Assembly (NCBI GenBank): GCA_025920425.1
Contig: JAPDLS010000001.1
Location: forward strand, 92,288-156,287
DNA length: 64,000 nt
From: Candidatus Haiyanarchaeum thermophilum
GTDB taxonomy: Archaea > Nanobdellota > Nanobdellia > JAPDLS01 > Haiyanarchaeaceae
Reading direction: 5' to 3'
The notes below the pieces were generated by a model. The model was not told the origin of the DNA and ran no database searches. It saw only the letters and a program-made list of their open reading frames with translations. This document shows, in pieces, positions 1,024-61,683 of the stretch (position 1 is the first letter of the stretch; every line of letters starts with the position of its first letter). A program made the position numbers and the translations under genes.

Positions 1024-1105
1024 CGCCGGGGCTGGGATTCGAACCCAGGAGGGCAAAGCCCACACGCTCTCAAGGCGTGCCCCTTAACCGCTTGGGTACC
1101 CCGGC
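1024..1105 (-). tRNA. tRNA-Ser (anticodon UGA), 82 nt, long variable arm
   Basis: Hand-folded cloverleaf: acceptor GCCGGGG/CCCCGGC, 3-bp D stem, anticodon stem CACGC/GCGTG with loop CTTGAGA, variable stem-loop GGGC-TTT-GCCC, T arm CTGGG-TTCGAAT-CCCAG, discriminator G. Confidence 0.85.
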
Positions 1106-1137: not shown

Positions 1138-2136
1138 CTACTTCCTCTTTTTCCAAACCCTAGGATAAATATCTCTTGGCATTATTACCCTTTCCAGTTT
1201 TGCCACAATTCCTTTCTTAGCCTCGATCAAGCTTTCCCAATCCATCTGAGCTCTAGCTATGGCTACTAATTCTCCCTTCAAGGTCATAATAGCCAATATA
1301 TCATTGATCTCCCAGCCTGACTCAAACTTGACAACTCCAGGAACCATGAGGGGAGCTCCATAAGTGAGTGCCCCCACACTCGTATCACTCACATAAACTT
1401 TTGGTAAGTGGGCTACTGAGAATTCGCATGGGAGAATTAACTCAGCAATTTCTTTCTCATTTCCACTTTCCTTGAAAGAAAGGTAAGCCGCAGCTAATTT
1501 ATGAAGTGTAATAAGCTTTGTATTCTCATTGAATGCTCCAACCTTAGTCCTTCTCAGCTGTACCATATGTGCTCCCACTCCCAATTTTACACCTATGTCA
1601 TGGCATAATTTTCGAATATAGGTGCCTGATTCACATCCGATTTCTAAAAGTACATCTTTCCTCTCCACTTCTAAGATATTGATATAGTAGATCTCCCTTT
1701 CCCTCTCCACTCTTTTTGCTTTGGCCCTTACAGGAGGAATCTGCTTGATCTTGCCAACAAAACCTAGGATGGCTTCCCTCAACTTCTCAAATGGGACTTG
1801 AGAATGAAGATGCATGAGACATACATATTCCTTTCCAGCAAGCAGTAATGGTTTGATCAATTTCGTAGAATTTTGCAAGGCTACTGGTAATACTCCAGTG
1901 ACCTTCAAATCTAAAATTCCAGGATGTCCTGTTTTATCTAAATTAAGGATCCTCTTCACAAAATATGATACATTATGTGAACTTTGACCACTCGGCTTAT
2001 CTATATTCACGAATCCAAACTTCAACATTTCTGTAAGGTTTCTTTCTTCAGGAGGCTTCCCAAAAGAAGGATTCGATTCTTCCTCACGCTTTTCAATTAC
2101 CTCTCTCTTGACTTTCTCAAATGGAAGCAATCCCAT
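1138..2136 (-). CDS. cbf5: tRNA/rRNA pseudouridine synthase Cbf5 (H/ACA RNP catalytic subunit), apparently intron-free
   Basis: TruB-type motif GHPGILD, C-terminal PUA-like region, and conserved position downstream of L14e and cmk. Confidence 0.85.
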   Translation of the reverse strand: MGLLPFEKVKREVIEKREEESNPSFGKPPEERNLTEMLKFGFVNIDKPSGQSSHNVSYFVKRILNLDKTGHPGILDLKVTGVLPVALQNSTKLIKPLLLAGKEYVCLMHLHSQVPFEKLREAILGFVGKIKQIPPVRAKAKRVEREREIYYINILEVERKDVLLEIGCESGTYIRKLCHDIGVKLGVGAHMVQLRRTKVGAFNENTKLITLHKLAAAYLSFKESGNEKEIAELILPCEFSVAHLPKVYVSDTSVGALTYGAPLMVPGVVKFESGWEINDILAIMTLKGELVAIARAQMDWESLIEAKKGIVAKLERVIMPRDIYPRVWKKRK

Positions 2137-16321: not shown

Positions 16322-17764
16322 TTAACCTTTGACCACACCCAGTGGTACTAGCCTAGCCACCAATTTCCCAATTCCAGCCCTATCACTTACAATGGCCACC
16401 TCATCTATATCTTTATATGCCCCTGGGGCCTCTTCTGCCACGATCTCCCAAGAAGCAGCCCTCACCAATATTCCCTTCCTTTCCAATTCTTGAGCAATTT
16501 CCTTCCCCCTGAACTTCTTTATTGCAGCATTCCTACTCATTTCCCTTCCAGCACCATGAGCAGTGGAATAAAAAGTTTTCCTTGCCTCAGGATTTCCAAC
16601 TAGAACATAACTTGCTGTGCCCATACAACCCGGAATTAGCACTGGTTGACCGGTTCTCCTATATTTTTGAGGCAAATCCTCACTTCCTGGGGGAAAGGCT
16701 CTAGTGGCTCCCTTCCTGTGCACGAATACTTTAACTTTCTCACCATTTACTTCATGATCTTCAATTTTCGCTATGTTATGTGCCACATCGTAGACTACTT
16801 GCAACCCCAAGGCATCCGGTTCCTTTTCAAATACTTGTTTGAAGCTTTCCCTTGTCCAATGCAAAATCATCTGCCTATTGCACCAAGCATAATTAGCTGC
16901 CGCACACATTGCAGCGAAGTAATTTTCAGCTATTTCACTTTTGGAAGGAGCATAAACCAGCTCTCTGTCAGGAAGCTTAGCTATCACTTCATGATATTTC
17001 CTCTCCATCTCTCTCAAGTAATCAGAACATACTTGATGCCCTAAGCCCCTCGAGCCTGTATGGATCATTATCATCACTTGTCCCTCTTCCTCTATTCCAA
17101 ATACTTTAGCTACTTCCCTATTGTAGATTTTGTCCACCTTTTGAACTTCTAGGAAATGATTTCCAGCCCCCAAGCTTCCAAGCTGGGGTAAACCTCTACT
17201 CTTAGCGGTGCTAGATACCTTTGATGGATCTGCTTGAGACATCCCTCCATTTTCCTCAAGATGCTCGAGATCCTCCTTCCAACCAAATCCATGCTCCACA
17301 GCCCACTTAGCTCCGAGCTGGAGCACTTGATCTAGTTCAGTGGAAGATACTCTTATCTTCCCACCCTTCCCCACACCAGATGGTATATTCCTAAAGATGA
17401 TCTCAAGCAATTCCCTAAGCCTAGGGCGGACATCTTCTTCTCTTAAATTACTTCTCACTAGGCGGACTCCACAGTTGATATCATACCCTATTCCTCCTGG
17501 GCTAATACAACCTTCCTCATAATCTATAGCTGCTACCCCTCCAATGGGAAAGCCATAGCCCTCATGACCGTCAGGTAAAGTAATGGAGTATTTGTAGATT
17601 CCAGGCAAACATGCAACTCCAGCAGCCTGAATCAAAGTCCTATCCTGCTTCATTTTCTCCAGAAGCTTAGGACTAGCTATGATGAGGGCTGGTACTCTCA
17701 TTCCCGGAATACTCCCTTTAGGAATTTCCCACTCTATGTCGCTTATTTTCTTGAGCTCAACCAT
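16322..17764 (-). CDS. rtcB: RNA-splicing ligase RtcB (3'-phosphate/5'-hydroxyl ligase), no intein
   Basis: Conserved RtcB blocks GYDINCGVR, GAGNHFLEV, HTGSRGLG, STAHGAGR in a 480-aa protein. Confidence 0.9.
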   Translation of the reverse strand: MVELKKISDIEWEIPKGSIPGMRVPALIIASPKLLEKMKQDRTLIQAAGVACLPGIYKYSITLPDGHEGYGFPIGGVAAIDYEEGCISPGGIGYDINCGVRLVRSNLREEDVRPRLRELLEIIFRNIPSGVGKGGKIRVSSTELDQVLQLGAKWAVEHGFGWKEDLEHLEENGGMSQADPSKVSSTAKSRGLPQLGSLGAGNHFLEVQKVDKIYNREVAKVFGIEEEGQVMIMIHTGSRGLGHQVCSDYLREMERKYHEVIAKLPDRELVYAPSKSEIAENYFAAMCAAANYAWCNRQMILHWTRESFKQVFEKEPDALGLQVVYDVAHNIAKIEDHEVNGEKVKVFVHRKGATRAFPPGSEDLPQKYRRTGQPVLIPGCMGTASYVLVGNPEARKTFYSTAHGAGREMSRNAAIKKFRGKEIAQELERKGILVRAASWEIVAEEAPGAYKDIDEVAIVSDRAGIGKLVARLVPLGVVKG

Positions 17765-23506: not shown

Positions 23507-23588
23507 GCCGGGGTACCCAAGCGGTTAAGGGGCACGCCTGGAGAGCGTGTGGGCTTTGCCCTCCTGGGTTCGAATCCCAGCCCCGGCG
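23507..23588 (+). tRNA. tRNA-Ser (anticodon GGA), 82 nt
   Basis: Same cloverleaf as the gene at 1024..1105; anticodon loop CTGGAGA; differs from the UGA copy only at position 34. Confidence 0.85.
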
Positions 23589-43022: not shown

Positions 43023-43278
43023 CTATCACCACCCTATAATATTTAGTTTCTCCAGCGGTAGGGGAACTACGAGTAATTTCTATCACATCTCCAGGCTTAG
43101 CCCCAAGCTTCCGTACGACAGGATCCGTGATTAGAATCCTCGGGAGATCTGCGAGTTTGGCATTATATTTGGTTAGCAACTCTCTCTTCTCCTCCTCGCT
43201 AATGATCCTATGTCTAGGTACGAGTCTGTGGGTAAAGATGTCAAATTCTTCTTTATCTCTCTCCTCTATCATCTTCAT
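43015..43278 (-). CDS. rpoH: DNA-directed RNA polymerase subunit H (Rpb5-like)
   Basis: About 85-aa Rpb5-like sequence ([10 protein letters not shown]...[12 protein letters not shown]); the ORF-track N-terminus runs into tRNA-Lys, so the true start is MKM at 43278 or MIE at 43272. Confidence 0.8.
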
Positions 43279-43400
43279 GGGCCGTGCGGGATTCGAACCC
43301 GCGACCACTGGGTCTCTTCATCCTCAGGTTCAGAGCTTTTATCTTGGGATAAAAGCCCAGTGCTCTTGGTAAGCTTTCTACCAGGCTGAGCTAACGGCCC
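43278..43400 (-). tRNA. tRNA-Lys (anticodon UUU) with two predicted introns: about 11-13 nt in the D-loop and about 36 nt at canonical position 37/38
   Basis: Removing both insertions gives a standard 73-nt tRNA-Lys (acceptor GGGCCGT, D stem GCTC/GAGC, anticodon stem CTGGG/CCCAG with loop CTTTTAA); canonical intron has a CUUU/GAAG central helix. Confidence 0.7.
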
Positions 43401-44507: not shown

Positions 44508-45521
44508 ATGGAGAAGATAAGGATAAGTGGGAGAGTCTTGGAAAAGCTAAAGAAGGCACATTATGGAGTCTTCGGTCACTCGGCTGTGGAGATATGCCTA
44601 TGGAATAAGAAGGCGATAAGGGGAGAGGGAGTATGTTATAAGCGCAAATTCTTTGGAATAGAAACACATAGGTGTATGCAGTTCTCTCCAGCAGCTGCCT
44701 ATTGTGAGAATAGATGCATCTATTGTTGGAGGTTTTCAGAGTTCTATAGAATTTTGAATATGCCTGAGGAAGCTGTAGATGATCCGCAAGAGATAATTGA
44801 GAATTTAATGAGAGAAAGGAGAAGATTACTCTCAGGGTTTTTTGGAAATGTGAAGGCAAATAAGGAGCTTTTGAAGGAGGCAATGATTCCCAGCCACTTT
44901 GCTATTTCCCTTATAGGAGAGCCTACACTTTATCCCAAGCTTCCAAAGATGATCAAGTATTTGAAGTCCCTTCCCCATACGAGATCTGTTTTCTTGGTTA
45001 CCAATGGGCAGGAGCCACAAATGCTTAAGAGACTCGAAGCTGAGAGAGCCCTACCTACTCAACTTTATCTCTCTTTAAATGCTGGCTCAATGGAGAAGTT
45101 TAGAGAGATTAATAGACCCTTGCTTCCCGATGCATGGGAGAGATTCTGGGAAAGCTTGGAGTTCCTGAGAAAAAATGAAGTGAGAAGCGTGATTAGGGTT
45201 ACACTTATTAAAAGTCTTAATACTAATGAGGAAGAGCTTGAGAAGATGTGTGAATTGATAAAGGTAGCAAATCCCAACTTCGTGGAAGTGAAGTCTTACA
45301 TGCATTTGGGCTATTCCACCCGGAGACTCAGTAAGACTAACATGCTTACTCAACTTGAGTTGAAAAAATGCATAAATAAAATGTTAAAGCATCTTCGGTT
45401 TTTCAAATACATGGATGAACAGGAGGAATCTAGAGTCATAATCCTTCAGAACGTTGAAAGATTTGTGGAACGGTGGATTCTTAGACCTGAAGAGTCAACT
45501 CTCCATAAATTCAACTTATAA
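44508..45521 (+). CDS. taw1: tRNA 4-demethylwyosine synthase Taw1/TYW1 (radical SAM)
   Basis: GIETHRCMQ...CENRCIYCWR radical SAM region and the SLIGEPTLYP block typical of TYW1 homologs. Confidence 0.75.
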   Translation: MEKIRISGRVLEKLKKAHYGVFGHSAVEICLWNKKAIRGEGVCYKRKFFGIETHRCMQFSPAAAYCENRCIYCWRFSEFYRILNMPEEAVDDPQEIIENLMRERRRLLSGFFGNVKANKELLKEAMIPSHFAISLIGEPTLYPKLPKMIKYLKSLPHTRSVFLVTNGQEPQMLKRLEAERALPTQLYLSLNAGSMEKFREINRPLLPDAWERFWESLEFLRKNEVRSVIRVTLIKSLNTNEEELEKMCELIKVANPNFVEVKSYMHLGYSTRRLSKTNMLTQLELKKCINKMLKHLRFFKYMDEQEESRVIILQNVERFVERWILRPEESTLHKFNL

Positions 45522-45601: not shown

Positions 45602-45684
45602 TCCGAAGAGGAAATACTCCTCCTTACTTTAAATTTTTATCCTCTAACCTCCAACATCATTATTTCCCACAAAAGAAATTGGAA

Positions 45685-45804
45685 TCCTGCGGGCCGGATT
45701 TGAACCGGCGATCTTCCGGTAACCGCTGAGTTTTGGTCATCGATACCAATACAGTTACTCCCAACTCTACAGCCGGACGCGTTACCGGGCTACGCTACCG
45801 CAGG
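45685..45804 (-). tRNA. tRNA-Tyr (anticodon GUA) with a canonical-position intron of about 45 nt
   Basis: C1:G72 acceptor pair, D stem GCGT/ACGC, anticodon stem TCCGG/CCGGA with loop CTGTAGA after removing the insertion, T arm GCCGG-TTCAAAT-CCGGC, discriminator A. Confidence 0.8.
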
Positions 45805-46511: not shown

Positions 46512-46787
46512 ATGGCAAAAGTTACGGTTACTATCTGTGATATTTGCAAGGAGAGATTGGCCATATCCACTTGTCCAATCTGTGGTAAAGATCTATGCAA
46601 GACATGCACCAAGAACGTGAGCTTTAATCTCGCAGTCAAATTTGGGCCAGCATTAGAATTTTGGAAGGGAAATATGTGCGATGATTGCTTCAGGAAGATC
46701 GAGAGCAGATACAAGGAGATCATTCAAGAATTATCAACAAAAATTGAACCAGAAGTGGTAAATGTTGTGAAGAAATATTCAGCCTAA
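46512..46787 (+). CDS. small zinc-ribbon protein (four CxxC pairs)
   Basis: 91 aa with CDIC, CPIC, CKTC and CDDC pairs. Confidence 0.35.
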   Translation: MAKVTVTICDICKERLAISTCPICGKDLCKTCTKNVSFNLAVKFGPALEFWKGNMCDDCFRKIESRYKEIIQELSTKIEPEVVNVVKKYSA

Positions 46788-48161
46788 TACAATTTTAGCA
46801 TAGTTAGACTCAGAAGAATAGGTTTTTCCATCTACCTTGCACTTCAATTCGAAGGGTGGAATAGATATTTCCCCTACCAGTTGAAGCCTGCTTCTTACCT
46901 TGTAAGAGATTATCACTTCTTCTCCAGCAGAGATCTCAGGGAGTTCCCACCTTACTGTCCTCTTCTCCTTGTTTAAGATGGCCTTTGCACTGAATGCCCC
47001 AATTTCATGCACGAACTTGGGAATGACATCTATTATTTCTACTTCACTCAACCTCTTAGACGTAGTATTCCTAATCCTCAGTACAATTTTAGCTTCTATT
47101 TTATCGTCTACGTGTCTTTTCTCCACTACATTTTTCTCTAGGATAATGCCTCTCCTGAAATGCAGGAATACCCACCCAGCTACTATTATCACCACTGGAA
47201 TTAGGATGAGGGGGAGATAGGAAATCGAGATACGAATCTCTTTTTCCTCTCCGGGCTGGAGAGTGATTTCATAAATTATTTTGTCCCCCTTCCTCACGTA
47301 GTTAGGGGTGATCCCTGTTAAGAAGAGATTATCTAGGAAAGAGAGAGTGAATTCGAATCTGAATGTGGAGCTTTGAGTTCCTTCATTTTTCCAAGCATAA
47401 TAGATTTCCCTTCCGAAGAGACTTGTGATTTCCTCTTTAGCAATAGGAACCACTTTTTCATAACCCAGCACACTAAAGTTTAAGGAACTAGAAGCAGTAG
47501 AATTGAGGAAGGAAATGGTGAATACTAGAGTATAATCGCCAGGTGCCTGAGTATCGTTAAGTTTCAGGAGCTCTTGTAATACATAGAGAGCTGCAGGAGC
47601 TATGGGAGAGGTGACATGTTTCTCGAGTATAATTTTTCCGGAGCTATCATATATTTCTATTTTCTTCTCAGTGGTGTCTTCTTCTAGGTTAGAAAAGATG
47701 GATATCTTAAGCGATACAACTTCTCTAGGATCTATGGAGGTAGGAAAACTTAGGTTTAAGATCTTCACGTCCCAGATCTCTCCAGCAGCCACTTTAGCTC
47801 CGTAGAGCTTAGAATCATAGGATATATAGATCTTAAAGCTTACTTTGTTTGGGTATCTATAGGAGGAAAAGGTACTGATTTCAAGTGGCAAGTATACTTC
47901 AGTTCTGGGAGGGATAGAGAAGGCAAAGGCATAGGTAGTGGTAGTATAATTCCAGCGGACACCATATTCTGGGGAAGTGGGTAATGTTAAGTAAACAGTG
48001 ATGGTCGAATCCTCATTATTCCAAAATCTTAATCTGTAGAGAAATGTATCTCCCACCATTATCTTATTTTTCACATCAATTACTTCCACTTCAAGTCCTT
48101 TAGCACAGTTTAGCAGTAAGAAACTTATCGCCAATAATAGGATTATGCACTTCCTTATCAT
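46779..48161 (-). CDS. hypothetical surface glycoprotein with signal peptide and one C-proximal transmembrane helix
   Basis: N-terminal signal sequence, beta-rich ectodomain with several N-x-S/T sequons, hydrophobic segment LPLILIPVVIIVAGWVFL. Confidence 0.4.
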   Translation of the reverse strand: MIRKCIILLLAISFLLLNCAKGLEVEVIDVKNKIMVGDTFLYRLRFWNNEDSTITVYLTLPTSPEYGVRWNYTTTTYAFAFSIPPRTEVYLPLEISTFSSYRYPNKVSFKIYISYDSKLYGAKVAAGEIWDVKILNLSFPTSIDPREVVSLKISIFSNLEEDTTEKKIEIYDSSGKIILEKHVTSPIAPAALYVLQELLKLNDTQAPGDYTLVFTISFLNSTASSSLNFSVLGYEKVVPIAKEEITSLFGREIYYAWKNEGTQSSTFRFEFTLSFLDNLFLTGITPNYVRKGDKIIYEITLQPGEEKEIRISISYLPLILIPVVIIVAGWVFLHFRRGIILEKNVVEKRHVDDKIEAKIVLRIRNTTSKRLSEVEIIDVIPKFVHEIGAFSAKAILNKEKRTVRWELPEISAGEEVIISYKVRSRLQLVGEISIPPFELKCKVDGKTYSSESNYAKIVLG

Positions 48162-50089: not shown

Positions 50090-50177
50090 TGGACCGGCCG
50101 GGACTCGAACCCGGAGCCTTCTCCACTTCCGAGTACCCTCTGCGAAGGAGACGCTCTACCAGTTGAGCTACCGGCCC
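50090..50177 (-). tRNA. tRNA-Ala (anticodon CGC) with a 15-nt intron at position 37/38
   Basis: G3:U70 wobble pair in the acceptor stem, anticodon stem TCTCC/GGAGA, intron with UUCG/CGGA central helix, T arm CCGGG-TTCGAGT-CCCGG. Confidence 0.8.
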
Positions 50178-51036: not shown

Positions 51037-52053
51037 GTGACTAGAATAAGCATGTACTTTAAATTAAATGAGCTTGAGAAAGTGGTGAACACAAAAGTAT
51101 ATGACGAAATTCATAAACAGGAGATTGAGAGGACGATCATTTTCAGAGAGAATCCAATTTTCATGAGCAGGGCCAGAATTGAGCCATCCAGAGAAGAGAG
51201 GAAAATAGAGACAGATTTTGCCTATCCTATTAAGGTGAAGGAGGAAGAATGCTTTTTCTGTCATCCCAATGAAAAATGCTCCAAGTTCCGGCATGAAAAT
51301 CTGAGCCCTATTTATTTTCTCAACGAGAGTGTTGTATTCTCTAACCTTTATCCTATAGATGAAATAATGGGGGTAGTGGTTTACGATTATAAGAGACATG
51401 TAGTCTCTCCGCTTGAGCTGAATTCCTCTCACTGGAGGGATGGATTGTTGTTAGTAAAAAAAGTGTTCGAGAGTTCTGGTAAAAAGTATGTATACAATCA
51501 TCTCAACTTTGGACCAAAGTCAGCAGCCTCAATTGAACATTTCCATGGCCAGTTTATCTGTAGTAATTACGAAAGCATACTCACGAGCAGAGTGAGGGAG
51601 AATGCGAGGAAGTTAGAAGTAAGTCCAAGGCTAGCATTAAAATCTTGGATTGAGGCGCTTGATGAAAAGGGATTAATACTAAAGCGAGATGAGAATACTA
51701 GCACTTATCTCTTTGTAGAATGGGCTCCAGTATTTGGTAAGAGTGAGCTGGTAATTACCTCCACTTATCATTCTAACTTAGGGGAGATGGAAGATTTAGA
51801 AATTCAGAAGGTAGCTGAGTTCTTAGAGCTTGGTAGTAAACTTTTTTTTACTCATGTGAGCAATCAATTTACCATAATCAATGTAGCCTCCTTCAAGTCC
51901 GATGAGTTCTGCAATCAGTTTAGGATAGTAGCAAGAGCCCCCTTAGAGCAGGGGATGAAGAGTTGGGAGGGTTTCTTAGAGCTTTCGGGGGAAAGTGTAC
52001 CAAATATACTACCAGAAGCTTTGGCTCAAAAATTGAAGAATGAATTACGTTAA
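51037..52053 (+). CDS. galactose-1-phosphate uridylyltransferase-like nucleotidyltransferase (HIT superfamily)
   Basis: N-terminal CFFCHP zinc-type motif and HFHGQ active-site-like motif. Confidence 0.5.
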   Translation: MTRISMYFKLNELEKVVNTKVYDEIHKQEIERTIIFRENPIFMSRARIEPSREERKIETDFAYPIKVKEEECFFCHPNEKCSKFRHENLSPIYFLNESVVFSNLYPIDEIMGVVVYDYKRHVVSPLELNSSHWRDGLLLVKKVFESSGKKYVYNHLNFGPKSAASIEHFHGQFICSNYESILTSRVRENARKLEVSPRLALKSWIEALDEKGLILKRDENTSTYLFVEWAPVFGKSELVITSTYHSNLGEMEDLEIQKVAEFLELGSKLFFTHVSNQFTIINVASFKSDEFCNQFRIVARAPLEQGMKSWEGFLELSGESVPNILPEALAQKLKNELR

Positions 52054-58354: not shown

Positions 58355-58453
58355 TGGGCCCGGTGGGATTTGAACCCACGACCTACGGTTCTCTTAGATG
58401 TGCGGAACTCGGTCTTATAAGACCGTCGCTCCACCAGGCTAAGCTACGGGCCC
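58355..58453 (-). tRNA. tRNA-Ile with predicted anticodon UAU and a 25-nt intron at position 37/38
   Basis: Acceptor GGGCCCG/CGGGCCC, discriminator A, anticodon stem ACGGT/ACCGT, 5-nt variable loop; intron has a perfect CUUA/UAAG central helix with 3-nt bulges, leaving loop CUUAUAA. Confidence 0.7.
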
Positions 58454-58487
58454 TTATTTCTCTATGGAGGAGTTGAAATTTTAAAGT

Positions 58488-59465
58488 TTACTCAAGTCTA
58501 CATTCATAGATCGTCTTATCCTCCCTAATCCTCAAAAATACTGGAGCCCTCAATTTCTTGTCCTTTGTAATTTCCATGCATTTCACCTCACATATATATC
58601 TTGGCTCAACGAAGACCATCTTTTCAGCCATGTTTGGTTCCTCTTCGAAGATCTCAAATGGGTTTTTATCGATTGTAATTGGTTCGAGCATTTCTTTGAG
58701 CTTAGCTAGATCACTCTCACTAAAACCGGTTCCTACTCTCCCAACATATCTCAGCTTTCCCTCATCCAAACATCCGAGCACTAGGGCTCCTAAGTATTTC
58801 TCCCGAATCCCTTCTCCTCTCGTAAAGCCACAGATCACACAGTCCACAGTCTTCGTAGCCTTTATCTTAAGCCAGTACTTAGATCTCTCTCCAATCAGAT
58901 AGGGACTGTCTATCTTCTTAGCCATTATTCCCTCGAAACCTTTCTTTGCCACTTCTTCAAAAAATTTGATCCCACCTCCTATTATGAATCTCGTAAGCTT
59001 CACCCTTTCTCCTTCAGTTACACATTCTCCTAAAATTCTCTTCCTCTCGATAAGTGGGAACTCAAGGAGAGATTTTCCATCTTTATAGAGAATATCAAAT
59101 ATGAAGAGGGTAGCCGGGCTCAATTTGGAGAGAAGTTCTATCCTTAGCTCATCACTTGTGTGTTCCCTCTCCTGCAATTTCCAAAAGTTTGGCTTCTCCC
59201 CATCCAGCACTACGATTTCTCCATCTAGAATTCCTTTATTTCCTAGGAAGGCATTAGGAAGCTCTTTTAATATTTCTGGATATCTCTTCTCAAAGAAGAG
59301 GCCTCTCCTATTGAGGAACTTAACTCTTTCCTTCTCTTTATCTATGTATACGATGGTTCTAGTTCCATCGTATTTTATTTCAAATAAATACTGCTCAGAA
59401 TCAAAAGGCCTAGCTGAAAATGCTAGCATTGGCTTTATCTTCTGATCGAAAAGATCTCCTTCCAT
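58488..59465 (-). CDS. ATP-dependent DNA ligase, small LigD/LigC-like ligase domain
   Basis: Motif I KxDGxR (EIKYDGTR) in a protein of only 325 aa; immediately downstream of the Ku gene. Confidence 0.75.
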   Translation of the reverse strand: MEGDLFDQKIKPMLAFSARPFDSEQYLFEIKYDGTRTIVYIDKEKERVKFLNRRGLFFEKRYPEILKELPNAFLGNKGILDGEIVVLDGEKPNFWKLQEREHTSDELRIELLSKLSPATLFIFDILYKDGKSLLEFPLIERKRILGECVTEGERVKLTRFIIGGGIKFFEEVAKKGFEGIMAKKIDSPYLIGERSKYWLKIKATKTVDCVICGFTRGEGIREKYLGALVLGCLDEGKLRYVGRVGTGFSESDLAKLKEMLEPITIDKNPFEIFEEEPNMAEKMVFVEPRYICEVKCMEITKDKKLRAPVFLRIREDKTIYECRLE

Positions 59466-60260
59466 TTAGCTGATCTGAGATACTTTCTTTTTCTTCTTTT
59501 CCAACAACTCCAAACTGCTTTTGAGAGCATCTACCAATGATTCAGTTACGATCTCTTCCTTCTCCTCCTTGGAAATAAATTCTCTCCCTTCCACCTTAGC
59601 TTTGATAAGTTCCTTGACCTTTTCACTAAATTCATCTTTAAACTTAGTGATATCGAATTCACTACTCAACTTCTGAATGAGCATTTGAGCTAACTTCAGT
59701 TCTTCCTCGCTTACCACTACCAACTGCTTCATTTCAGGAATCTCCTCCAGAGGCTTTACTTCAGAAAGATAATGAAGAATGTGCATAAGCAAACCATCCT
59801 TGTATGGCCTCAAGGCTACGAGATATTCCTTATTTCGCATGACTACCTTACCTATTGCCACTTTATTCGTAAGTCTTAGGGCCTGTACGAATAAGCTAAA
59901 TGCTTTGGCTCCTAGTTCCTGGGGCACCAAATAGTAGCTCTTCTCAAAGTAGATGGGATCTATTTGGGCTGGATCCACAAATTGTTTGATTTCTATTGTC
60001 TTTGTGGTCTTCAATTTAATCTTTTCAAGATCACTTCTTTCCACTACTACATACTGATCTTTGCTTATCTTGTACCCTTTCTTTATTTCATCCCACGAGA
60101 TCTCCCTATTGCAAACCGGGCACCAGCGTTTATGCTCTATAGGATGACCCTCCCTACAGAGATTCTTAAATTTTATGCCTGTACTCTCAGTAGCTACATA
60201 TACTTTAACCGGAATGTTGATCAGGGAGAAGGAAATACTCCCAGCCCAAATAGCTTTCAT
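59466..60260 (-). CDS. ku: Ku protein, bacterial-type (non-homologous end joining)
   Basis: Bacterial-Ku N-terminal signature MKAIWAGSISFSLINIPVKVYVA and core DPIYFEKSYYLVP. Confidence 0.8.
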   Translation of the reverse strand: MKAIWAGSISFSLINIPVKVYVATESTGIKFKNLCREGHPIEHKRWCPVCNREISWDEIKKGYKISKDQYVVVERSDLEKIKLKTTKTIEIKQFVDPAQIDPIYFEKSYYLVPQELGAKAFSLFVQALRLTNKVAIGKVVMRNKEYLVALRPYKDGLLMHILHYLSEVKPLEEIPEMKQLVVVSEEELKLAQMLIQKLSSEFDITKFKDEFSEKVKELIKAKVEGREFISKEEKEEIVTESLVDALKSSLELLEKKKKKVSQIS

Positions 60261-61601: not shown

Positions 61602-61683
61602 GCCGGGGTACCCAAGCGGTTAAGGGGCACGCCTGCTAAGCGTGTGGGCTTTGCCCTCCTGGGTTCGAATCCCAGCCCCGGCG
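61602..61683 (+). tRNA. tRNA-Ser (anticodon GCU), 82 nt
   Basis: Same body as the other two tRNA-Ser genes; anticodon loop CTGCTAA; differs only at positions 35-37. Confidence 0.85.

Follow-up and report, generated by a model that had tools for sequence, protein, structure and literature searches.

An intron-containing tRNA-Ile(UAU) gene in the hot-spring archaeon Candidatus Haiyanarchaeum thermophilum and the conserved complementarity between its intron and exons

The minus strand of a 64-kb stretch of DNA from Candidatus Haiyanarchaeum thermophilum (the window, which here means the whole stretch analysed) carries a complete tRNA-Ile(UAU) gene with an intron of 25 nt. The host is a species of hot-spring metagenome-assembled genomes (MAGs) in the phylum Nanobdellota, order Jingweiarchaeales, within DPANN; Ca. 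Haiyanarchaeum comes from very hot springs and is a relative of the Parvarchaeales (PMC10134863). An intron-containing tRNA-Ile with a UAU anticodon had been proposed at positions 58355 to 58453, and the gene lies exactly there, with Rfam, ARAGORN and the BHB geometry in agreement. The features at the locus are as follows.

58355..58453, minus strand: complete tRNA-Ile(UAU) gene, 99 nt including the intron, CCA not encoded (Rfam RF00005, ARAGORN intron search)
58416..58453, minus strand: 5' exon, tRNA positions 1-37 (acceptor 5' strand, D arm, anticodon-stem 5' strand, C32-A37)
58417..58419, minus strand: anticodon U34 A35 U36 (ATA on the plus strand)
58391..58415, minus strand: 25-nt intron AGACCGAGUUCCGCACAUCUAAGAG at the canonical 37/38 position, with BHB geometry read from the sequence
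58393..58396, minus strand: intron strand UAAG of the 4-bp central BHB helix, pairing with C32-A35 (58418-58421)
58355..58390, minus strand: 3' exon, positions 38-73 (A38, anticodon-stem 3' strand, variable loop, T arm, acceptor 3' strand, A73)
58479..58485, minus strand: TATA-box-like TTTAAAA, 26-32 nt upstream of the mature 5' end, recognised by its sequence

Rfam RF00005 matched the gene over its full length (60.5 bits against a gathering score of 29; E = 1.3e-10), and the alignment placed a 26-nt insertion past the anticodon. The RNA reads GGGCCCG UA GCUU AGCCUGGUG GAGC G ACGGU CUUAUA / AGACCGAGUUCCGCACAUCUAAGAG / A ACCGU AGGUC GUGGG UUCAAAU CCCAC CGGGCCC A, where slashes mark the ends of the intron; the precursor 5' of the anticodon stem ACGGU is GGGCCCGUAGCUUAGCCUGGUGGAGCG, and the part between AGGUC and CGGGCCC A is GUGGGUUCAAAUCCCAC. 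ARAGORN in default mode left the gene unnamed and proposed a 4-base 'aaga' anticodon, and with intron search switched on it called tRNA-Ile(tat). Spliced in silico, the 74-mer gave a perfect cloverleaf in ARAGORN, again as tRNA-Ile(tat), with 21 of 21 stem pairs standard and a 7-nt anticodon loop CUUAUAA (U33, A37 and A38; anticodon UAU). The short variable loop and the discriminator A of the original prediction were borne out (5 nt; A73). Reading the gene as a tRNA-Leu, or with another anticodon, was rejected on the 5-nt variable loop and on the 7-nt anticodon loop, which results from the canonical cuts only. The intron-bearing gene is a warning for annotation by default ARAGORN. Elsewhere in the window, the default mode gave wrong labels to two further tRNAs with introns and overlooked a fourth.

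The intron ends lie in a strict hBHBh' motif, with two opposite 3-nt bulges, a 4-bp helix and flanking helices of at least 2 bp. The central helix joins C32-U33-U34-A35 to the UAAG of intron positions -6 to -3; the 5' bulge consists of U36, A37 and the first intron nucleotide (UA/A), and the 3' bulge consists of the intron AG and A38 (AG/A). The outer helix h is the 5-bp anticodon stem (ACGGU/ACCGU), and the inner helix h' is exactly 2 bp (G-C, A-U). Cuts made in silico after the second base of each bulge removed 25 nt and left the 74-nt RNA, so that the 25-nt intron, the CUUA/UAAG helix, the 3-nt bulges and the loop CUUAUAA of the original prediction are correct in every detail. A random 4-mer pairs fully with CUUA with a chance of 1 in 64; given these odds, the identity of the gene in six assemblies and the pair-preserving changes in its orthologue (see below), the BHB match is not a chance one. 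A box C/D guide inside the intron was rejected by eye, since 25 nt is too short and holds no C/D box pair.

A ligase for the exon halves is encoded in the window, 41 kb from the tRNA gene.

16322..17764, minus strand: RtcB, tRNA-splicing ligase (Pfam PF01139, E = 2.2e-175, full length)

The splicing endonuclease EndA was not found among the 30 window open reading frames (ORFs) of at least 230 aa that were scanned. The window also encodes Cbf5 and a wyosine-synthesis enzyme.

Upstream of the gene, the TTTAAAA element stands directly past the stop codon of a ligase gene, and the orthologous locus in a related genus (L012) has an AT-rich TTTTTTATAT at the matching position. TTTAAAA is a putative archaeal TATA-like promoter element of the tRNA gene.

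Most archaea decode AUA with tRNA-Ile2(CAU), in which agmatidine is made by TiaS. Here, the gene very probably encodes a functional AUA-decoding tRNA-Ile3(UAU) that is spliced via the BHB motif and RtcB and replaces the Ile2(CAU)/TiaS route. Transcription would start from the TATA-like element about 29 nt upstream, and the precursor would take the strict hBHBh' fold at 37/38, at least transiently. The archaeal splicing endonuclease would then cleave past A37 and past intron nucleotide 25, the exon halves would be joined by RtcB, and CCA would be added. The mature 74-nt tRNA, with the loop C-U-U-A-U-A-A, would be charged by IleRS and would read AUA via a U34:A pair, and it would take the place of tRNA-Ile2(CAU) and its agmatidine (TiaS) route. 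We infer the expression of this tRNA, its actual splice junction, its charging and the state of its U34.

The tRNA gene was 100% identical in six independent assemblies, and position 34 was encoded as U (58419 is A on the plus strand) in six of six. The neighbouring genes for deoxyhypusine synthase, PCNA and the ligase were likewise identical in GCA_025920525.1, GCA_025920555.1, JGI hot-spring metagenomes, an ENA assembly and a Logan assembly. L012, the closest of the matches listed, is syntenic, with PCNA, ligase and Ku at 68-81% amino-acid identity. Its tRNA is identical to that of the window at 93 of 99 positions (94%), and the flanks cannot be aligned; among the substitutions are U50-A64 to A50-U64, which is compensatory in the T stem, and one of A to G that leaves U34 paired in the central helix. 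A decaying or silent tRNA pseudogene is the least probable reading of the locus, and barely credible: all 21 cloverleaf stem pairs are standard, the gene is unchanged in six assemblies and is kept at 94% identity in another genus, with a compensatory stem change, despite unalignable flanks, and AUA, the most used isoleucine codon, needs a decoder.

Homologues of the gene were sought in one genome per prokaryotic species with a pattern made up of an Ile-like D arm, a CUUAUA loop, an obligatory insertion and a standard T loop; because the insertion was required, intron-less UAU genes lie outside the scan. It returned at least 119 loci, of which at least 118 parse as UAU tRNAs and one is a Parcubacteria false match. 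The homologues, at least 118 in number, share the Ile-type body of the window tRNA and have introns of 16-39 nt at 37/38 and an anticodon stem paired at five of five positions. Almost all of the records listed are from DPANN (Woesearchaeota, Pacearchaeota, Micrarchaeota/Anstonellales, Aenigmatarchaeota, Nanoarchaeota, Iainarchaeum, Undinarchaeota and Parvarchaeota), and the matches listed include the complete genomes AR10 and AR20 and one labelled Thermoprotei, some names being placeholders or doubtful. Among the matches listed, 114 homologues are distinct, and in these each cloverleaf stem pair is formed in 95-100% of sequences and covaries where the pattern left its positions free. The four pairs of the central BHB helix are paired in 96, 94, 97 and 76% of these 114, with only G-U-compatible variation opposite the invariant CUUA, and the two pairs of h' are paired in 90 and 79%, with A-U/G-C covariation.

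Published surveys gave a narrower distribution. Out of 167 genomes, tRNA-UAU was found only in N. equitans and K. cryptofilum, and the K. cryptofilum gene has an intron and is otherwise the same as its own tRNA-Ile(GAU) (PMC6000648). In tRNAscan-SE 2.0 the isoacceptor is named tRNA-Ile3(UAU) and makes Ile2 unnecessary (PMC8450103). Fujishima et al. in 2011 reported tRNA-Ile(UAU) in ARMAN-2, -4 and -5, with tRNA-Ile(CAU) and TiaS lost (PMC3239211). The ARMAN-2 precursor, which has a 25-nt 37/38 intron and a strict hBHBh' motif, was cleaved correctly in vitro by its own endonuclease (PMC3239211; reused in PMC12397907). The original prediction had restricted a UAU tRNA-Ile to a few lineages (Nanoarchaeota and Korarchaeota). 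The host does fall within the 'Nanoarchaeota' radiation so named, since its phylum is Nanobdellota; the claim of rarity is out of date, because the ARMAN-2/-4/-5 genes were published in 2011 and at least 118 genomes with intron-containing UAU tRNAs are listed here. An encoded UAU with a 37/38 intron is the usual DPANN solution, already published for sister lineages, and the window gene adds an ordinary example to a described, if uncommon, kind of tRNA, in a phylum where it is expected. With it the thermophilic Ca. Haiyanarchaeum (Jingweiarchaeales) joins the archaea that would read AUA with an encoded UAU anticodon. Over the DPANN phyla this solution is the norm, not a curiosity of two or three genomes, and the intron is always present in the sequences retrieved, all of which had to match a pattern with an insertion.

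AUA codon usage, which the original prediction had named as a check, proved to be heavy: AUA is the commonest isoleucine codon in the window, with 616 of 1,679 (36.7%), or 32 per 1,000 codons (65 non-overlapping ORFs). When 106 AUA codons in seven conserved genes were compared with DPANN orthologues, they aligned with Ile in 46%, Val in 22%, Leu in 13% and Met in 0%. AUU and AUC had the same alignment spectrum, and AUG differed, aligning with ATG in 51%. Reassignment of AUA to Met was rejected on the 0% alignment of these 106 codons with Met; judged by the alignments, AUA means isoleucine in the host.

The isoleucine identity of the tRNA was approached through its body. A search of JGI metagenomes with a relaxed body pattern yielded 89 GAU/CAU loci from hot springs, and the acceptor stem and T arm of the window tRNA are identical to those of these 89 Ile-type tRNAs, several of which differ from it only in the D loop and anticodon arm; these loci bear on the Ile-type body only. 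In a DPANN locus (L113), UAU and GAU tRNAs lie 3 kb apart and, the anticodon arm aside, a single D-stem position distinguishes their bodies. An isotype comparison of bodies by ARAGORN was discarded because many of the same UAU genes were misnamed. By its sequence, A73 included, the tRNA has an Ile-type body, and it would be charged by IleRS. Searching the JGI metagenomes for a host tRNA-Ile(GAU) or tRNA-Ile(CAU) with an identical body gave no exact match. None of the 89 GAU/CAU loci had the host tetranucleotide signature (r <= 0.80), for which the references were the window against itself (0.96-0.98) and the sister genus (0.95).

Neither TiaS nor a CAU tRNA was found in the 64-kb window. The TiaS catalytic motif was absent from the window and from all retrieved loci (1.59 Mb in total), and no TiaS Pfam domain occurred in the 30 scanned window ORFs of at least 230 aa. 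A protein search with the first 153 residues of A. fulgidus TiaS (100% identical to PDB 4RVZ) gave no DPANN-named match among the best 120 of 232; the matches were fragments, few of them named, and the search is hence uninformative. K06932/tiaS was not seen in the listed part of the supplementary annotation tables of the MAG paper. For tRNA-Ile(UAU) itself TiaS would not be needed, because U34 is encoded and there is no cytidine to agmatinylate. By analogy with its relatives, the host probably lacks TiaS and tRNA-Ile2(CAU) genome-wide.

A genuine tRNA-Ile(UAU) might instead coexist with tRNA-Ile2(CAU) and TiaS encoded elsewhere, as a redundant or supplementary AUA decoder. The window is part of a genome of roughly 1 Mb, and CAU tRNAs whose body is Ile-type are present in other small-genome archaea from similar hot-spring samples. 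We nevertheless consider coexistence quite improbable, because every archaeal lineage so far studied in this respect (N. equitans, K. cryptofilum and ARMAN-2/4/5) has the UAU tRNA in place of TiaS and tRNA-Ile(CAU) (PMC3239211, PMC8450103, PMC3575796), because ARMAN-4/5 are Parvarchaeales, the group to which Ca. Haiyanarchaeum is related (PMC10134863), and because the host signature is missing from all 89 GAU/CAU loci. Replacement of the agmatidine route by the encoded UAU anticodon is the reading that we prefer.

On that reading, the closest known systems are those of ARMAN-2, -4 and -5 (Micrarchaeota, Parvarchaeota), which are likewise DPANN and have a UAU anticodon, a 37/38 intron and a strict hBHBh' motif (PMC3239211); with ARMAN-2, even the intron length of 25 nt is shared. 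The window gene differs in coming from the order Jingweiarchaeales and from a thermophile, and it is known here from its sequence, whereas cleavage in ARMAN-2 was demonstrated in vitro. As in N. equitans and K. cryptofilum, the encoded UAU would make tRNA-Ile2(CAU) unnecessary (PMC8450103, PMC6000648). K. cryptofilum shares the intron and itself stands outside DPANN. Unlike the N. equitans tRNA, which was described as unusual in its body and without a homologue (PMC2237900), the tRNA of the window is built on the archetypal archaeal Ile body. Like the tRNA-Ile2(CAU)/TiaS system, it would read AUA, not AUG, as isoleucine with an Ile-type body, and other hot-spring archaea have CAU tRNAs in which the acceptor stem and T arm are identical to its own; unlike tRNA-Ile2(CAU), it has an encoded U, not C, at position 34. 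In Mycoplasma mobile, too, a tRNA-Ile(UAU) replaces the modified-cytidine system in a reduced genome, though that tRNA is bacterial and without an intron, and its U34 was shown to be unmodified (PMC3575796). Eukaryotic cytoplasmic tRNA-Ile(UAU) shares the UAU anticodon and an obligatory 37/38 intron that pairs with the anticodon region (PMC11408192, PMC4090602). Unlike the eukaryotic intron, which is recognised by a molecular ruler, the archaeal one is recognised via the BHB motif, and the extra complementarity of the window intron extends into the D arm; in the window gene, the pairing with the anticodon region occurs in the central BHB helix and again in a predicted alternative hairpin.

This extra complementarity gives the unspliced RNA a second predicted fold.

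58399..58436, minus strand: long hairpin predicted as an alternative fold of the precursor, in which intron nucleotides 1-17 pair with the D-arm 3' half and the anticodon-stem 5' strand

The hairpin contains a 16-nt perfect palindrome, CGGUCUUAUAAGACCG, and is the predicted minimum-free-energy fold of the precursor, rather than the cloverleaf with BHB. In the predicted structure, intron nucleotides 1-6 pair with U33-C28 and nucleotides 8-17 with the D-arm 3' half, U34-A37 form a tetraloop, and neither the acceptor arm nor the T arm is disturbed; the hairpin is incompatible with the BHB motif, the D arm and the anticodon stem. By nearest-neighbour energies, which disregard tertiary contacts, modifications and proteins, the hairpin was favoured over the canonical cloverleaf with BHB at 37°C (-48.7 versus -29.2 kcal/mol) and at 75°C (-17.7 versus -3.7 kcal/mol).

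Splicing at other sites, or a precursor locked in the alternative hairpin, would give another anticodon loop or inefficient maturation. That the minimum-free-energy precursor fold is not the BHB, that h' is just 2 bp and that default ARAGORN proposed the 4-base 'aaga' anticodon speak in favour of such an outcome, which is nonetheless very hard to reconcile with the remaining evidence. No cuts other than the canonical ones yield a perfect cloverleaf and a 7-nt loop that has U33 and a purine at 37; the central helix and h' are conserved in the 114 distinct homologues among the matches listed; the equivalent ARMAN-2 precursor with its 25-nt intron was cleaved at the expected sites in vitro (PMC3239211, PMC12397907); and the energy models disregard tertiary structure and enzyme binding. 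Canonical splicing to tRNA-Ile(UAU) is preferred here.

The intron-exon complementarity extends to the homologues. Among the matches listed, intron positions 2-5 were paired with positions 32-29 in 97, 92, 96 and 68% of 118 homologues, and the stem variants covary (CCCGC with UGGCG, CUCGA with UGUCG, CUGCU with UGAGC). These 118 gave 352 paired cells against 314 +/- 5 in shuffles. In a junction-anchored alignment, the covariation score was 0.194, compared with 0.146 +/- 0.007 for shuffled sequences (0 of 500 reached it) and 0.05-0.14 for slid partners, and 65.9% of cells were paired versus 26-49% in controls. The duplex between the middle of the intron and the D-arm 3' half had a mean energy of -9.6 kcal/mol (controls: shuffled introns, -6.9 +/- 0.2 kcal/mol; D arms of other genes, -8.0 +/- 0.2 kcal/mol). 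The anticodon stem was kept in the predicted fold in 13% of real sequences, as against about 30% of stem pairs with shuffled interiors, and real introns displaced the anticodon stem more often than did introns with shuffled interiors (Wilcoxon p = 2e-17). By these statistics the complementarity is genuine. Since the canonical BHB pairs are conserved as well, both the BHB fold and the alternative hairpin appear to be under constraint.

No description of the intron-exon complementarity was found in the literature searched, and among these results it alone might surprise a specialist. In yeast, Pus1 makes Psi34 and Psi36 in tRNA-Ile(UAU) only when the intron is present, and the intron blocks ncm5U34 (PMC11408192, PMC4090602). 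The DPANN intron may conceivably have been kept for a role that precedes its removal, with the hairpin gating an intron-dependent step, an idea to which we give a small though real chance. If true, the hairpin could gate modification of U34 or U36, or shield U34 from xm5U-type enzymes and so prevent misreading of AUG, and it would be an archaeal counterpart of the eukaryotic tRNA-Ile(UAU) Pus1/intron system. On a more cautious reading, the hairpin could be a co-transcriptional folding intermediate or by-product, or the complementarity could be a relic of the origin of the intron, kept by drift in a conserved context. The complementarity is a testable handle on why tRNA-Ile(UAU) retains an intron in archaea and eukaryotes.

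The complementarity is also largely specific to the UAU isoacceptor among the DPANN introns compared: at least four consecutive pairs were present in 64% of UAU introns, compared with 11% of those of other isoacceptors from the same DPANN loci, and on these figures the idea that DPANN tRNA introns in general form the hairpin was rejected. Within the window, hairpin complementarity does occur in the introns of the Tyr and Ala tRNAs.

The origin of the UAU species could be approached through L113, a locus from outside the window organism, on which the two isoleucine tRNA genes lie 3 kb apart:

L113 2237-2348, tRNA-Ile(UAU)
L113 5592-5667, tRNA-Ile(GAU)

With the anticodon arm left aside, these tRNAs differ at a single position, in the D stem, and the pair is direct evidence that the UAU species is a paralogue of tRNA-Ile(GAU). 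The contig is from a DPANN archaeon; the label of its record, "uncultured Methanosarcinales," is probably a placeholder name.

Within a few kilobases of the Ile(UAU) gene in the DPANN loci L007 to L125, tRNA-Glu(UUC) (43 predictions) and tRNA-Gly(GCC) (24 predictions) recur, which suggests that many DPANN genomes share a conserved tRNA cluster with Ile(UAU). This Glu(UUC)/Gly(GCC) arrangement is absent around the Ile(UAU) gene of the window organism. Directly upstream of the tRNA lie two adjacent protein-coding genes (58488-60260):

58488-59465, minus strand, ATP-dependent LigD-like "non-homologous end-joining" (NHEJ) ligase
59466-60260, minus strand, Ku

Together they form an NHEJ module of two genes in the reduced genome of this DPANN archaeon, and the module is kept at the syntenic locus of the sister genus (L012). 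Three genes of tRNA maturation also share the window with tRNA-Ile(UAU):

1138-2136, minus strand, Cbf5 pseudouridine synthase (TruB, PUA, and DKCLD domains)
16322-17764, minus strand, RtcB splicing ligase
44508-45521, plus strand, Taw1/TYW1-type wyosine radical-SAM enzyme

Two open reading frames (46779-48161, minus strand, 460 amino acids; 51037-52053, plus strand, 338 amino acids) had no Pfam match at an E value of ≤1e-5.

Apparent users of the CAU route are represented by three hot-spring contigs of low GC content (0.35 to 0.38):

Ga0272449_1000001 (1.08 Mb), loci L168 and L210
Ga0185307_1000015, loci L171 and L134
Ga0326760_1000007, loci L179 and L214

Each carries a tRNA-Ile(GAU) together with a CAU tRNA whose acceptor stem and T arm match; judged from these genes, the organisms look as if they use the Ile2(CAU) route, and their habitat is of the same type as that of the window organism. 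Outside the window proteins, the N-terminal kinase-like domain of TiaS, the agmatidine-forming enzyme of that route, matched PDB 3U02 (Pyrococcus furiosus, 252 residues; E = 1.2e-33), which was deposited as "putative transcription-associated protein TFIIS" and looks like a truncated TiaS paralogue.

Other tRNA genes of the window are also interrupted:

43278-43400, minus strand, tRNA-Lys(UUU), two introns: a 13-nt intron in the D loop and a 36-nt intron at 37/38
45685-45804, minus strand, tRNA-Tyr(GUA), 46-nt intron at 37/38
50090-50177, minus strand, tRNA-Ala(CGC), 15-nt intron at 37/38, G3:U70 alanine identity pair

Spliced in silico, the alanine gene gives a clean tRNA-Ala fold and the lysine gene, with both introns removed, a perfect tRNA-Lys cloverleaf. 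ARAGORN with default settings (no intron search) labeled the former tRNA-Arg(tcg) and returned tRNA-Ser(cga) at 45684-45777 for the tyrosine gene. The lysine gene was detected neither by Rfam at the gathering score nor by default ARAGORN, and was named Leu(gag) when intron search was on. In tRNA-Tyr(GUA), as in tRNA-Ile(UAU), the 5' strand of the anticodon stem can pair with the start of the intron (6 bp).

The window also holds three serine tRNA genes:

1024-1105, minus strand, tRNA-Ser(UGA)
23507-23588, plus strand, tRNA-Ser(GGA)
61602-61683, plus strand, tRNA-Ser(GCU)

As a rule, the AGY-reading GCU species has a body of its own. Here its body is the same as those of the UGA and GGA species, all differences being confined to the anticodon loop.
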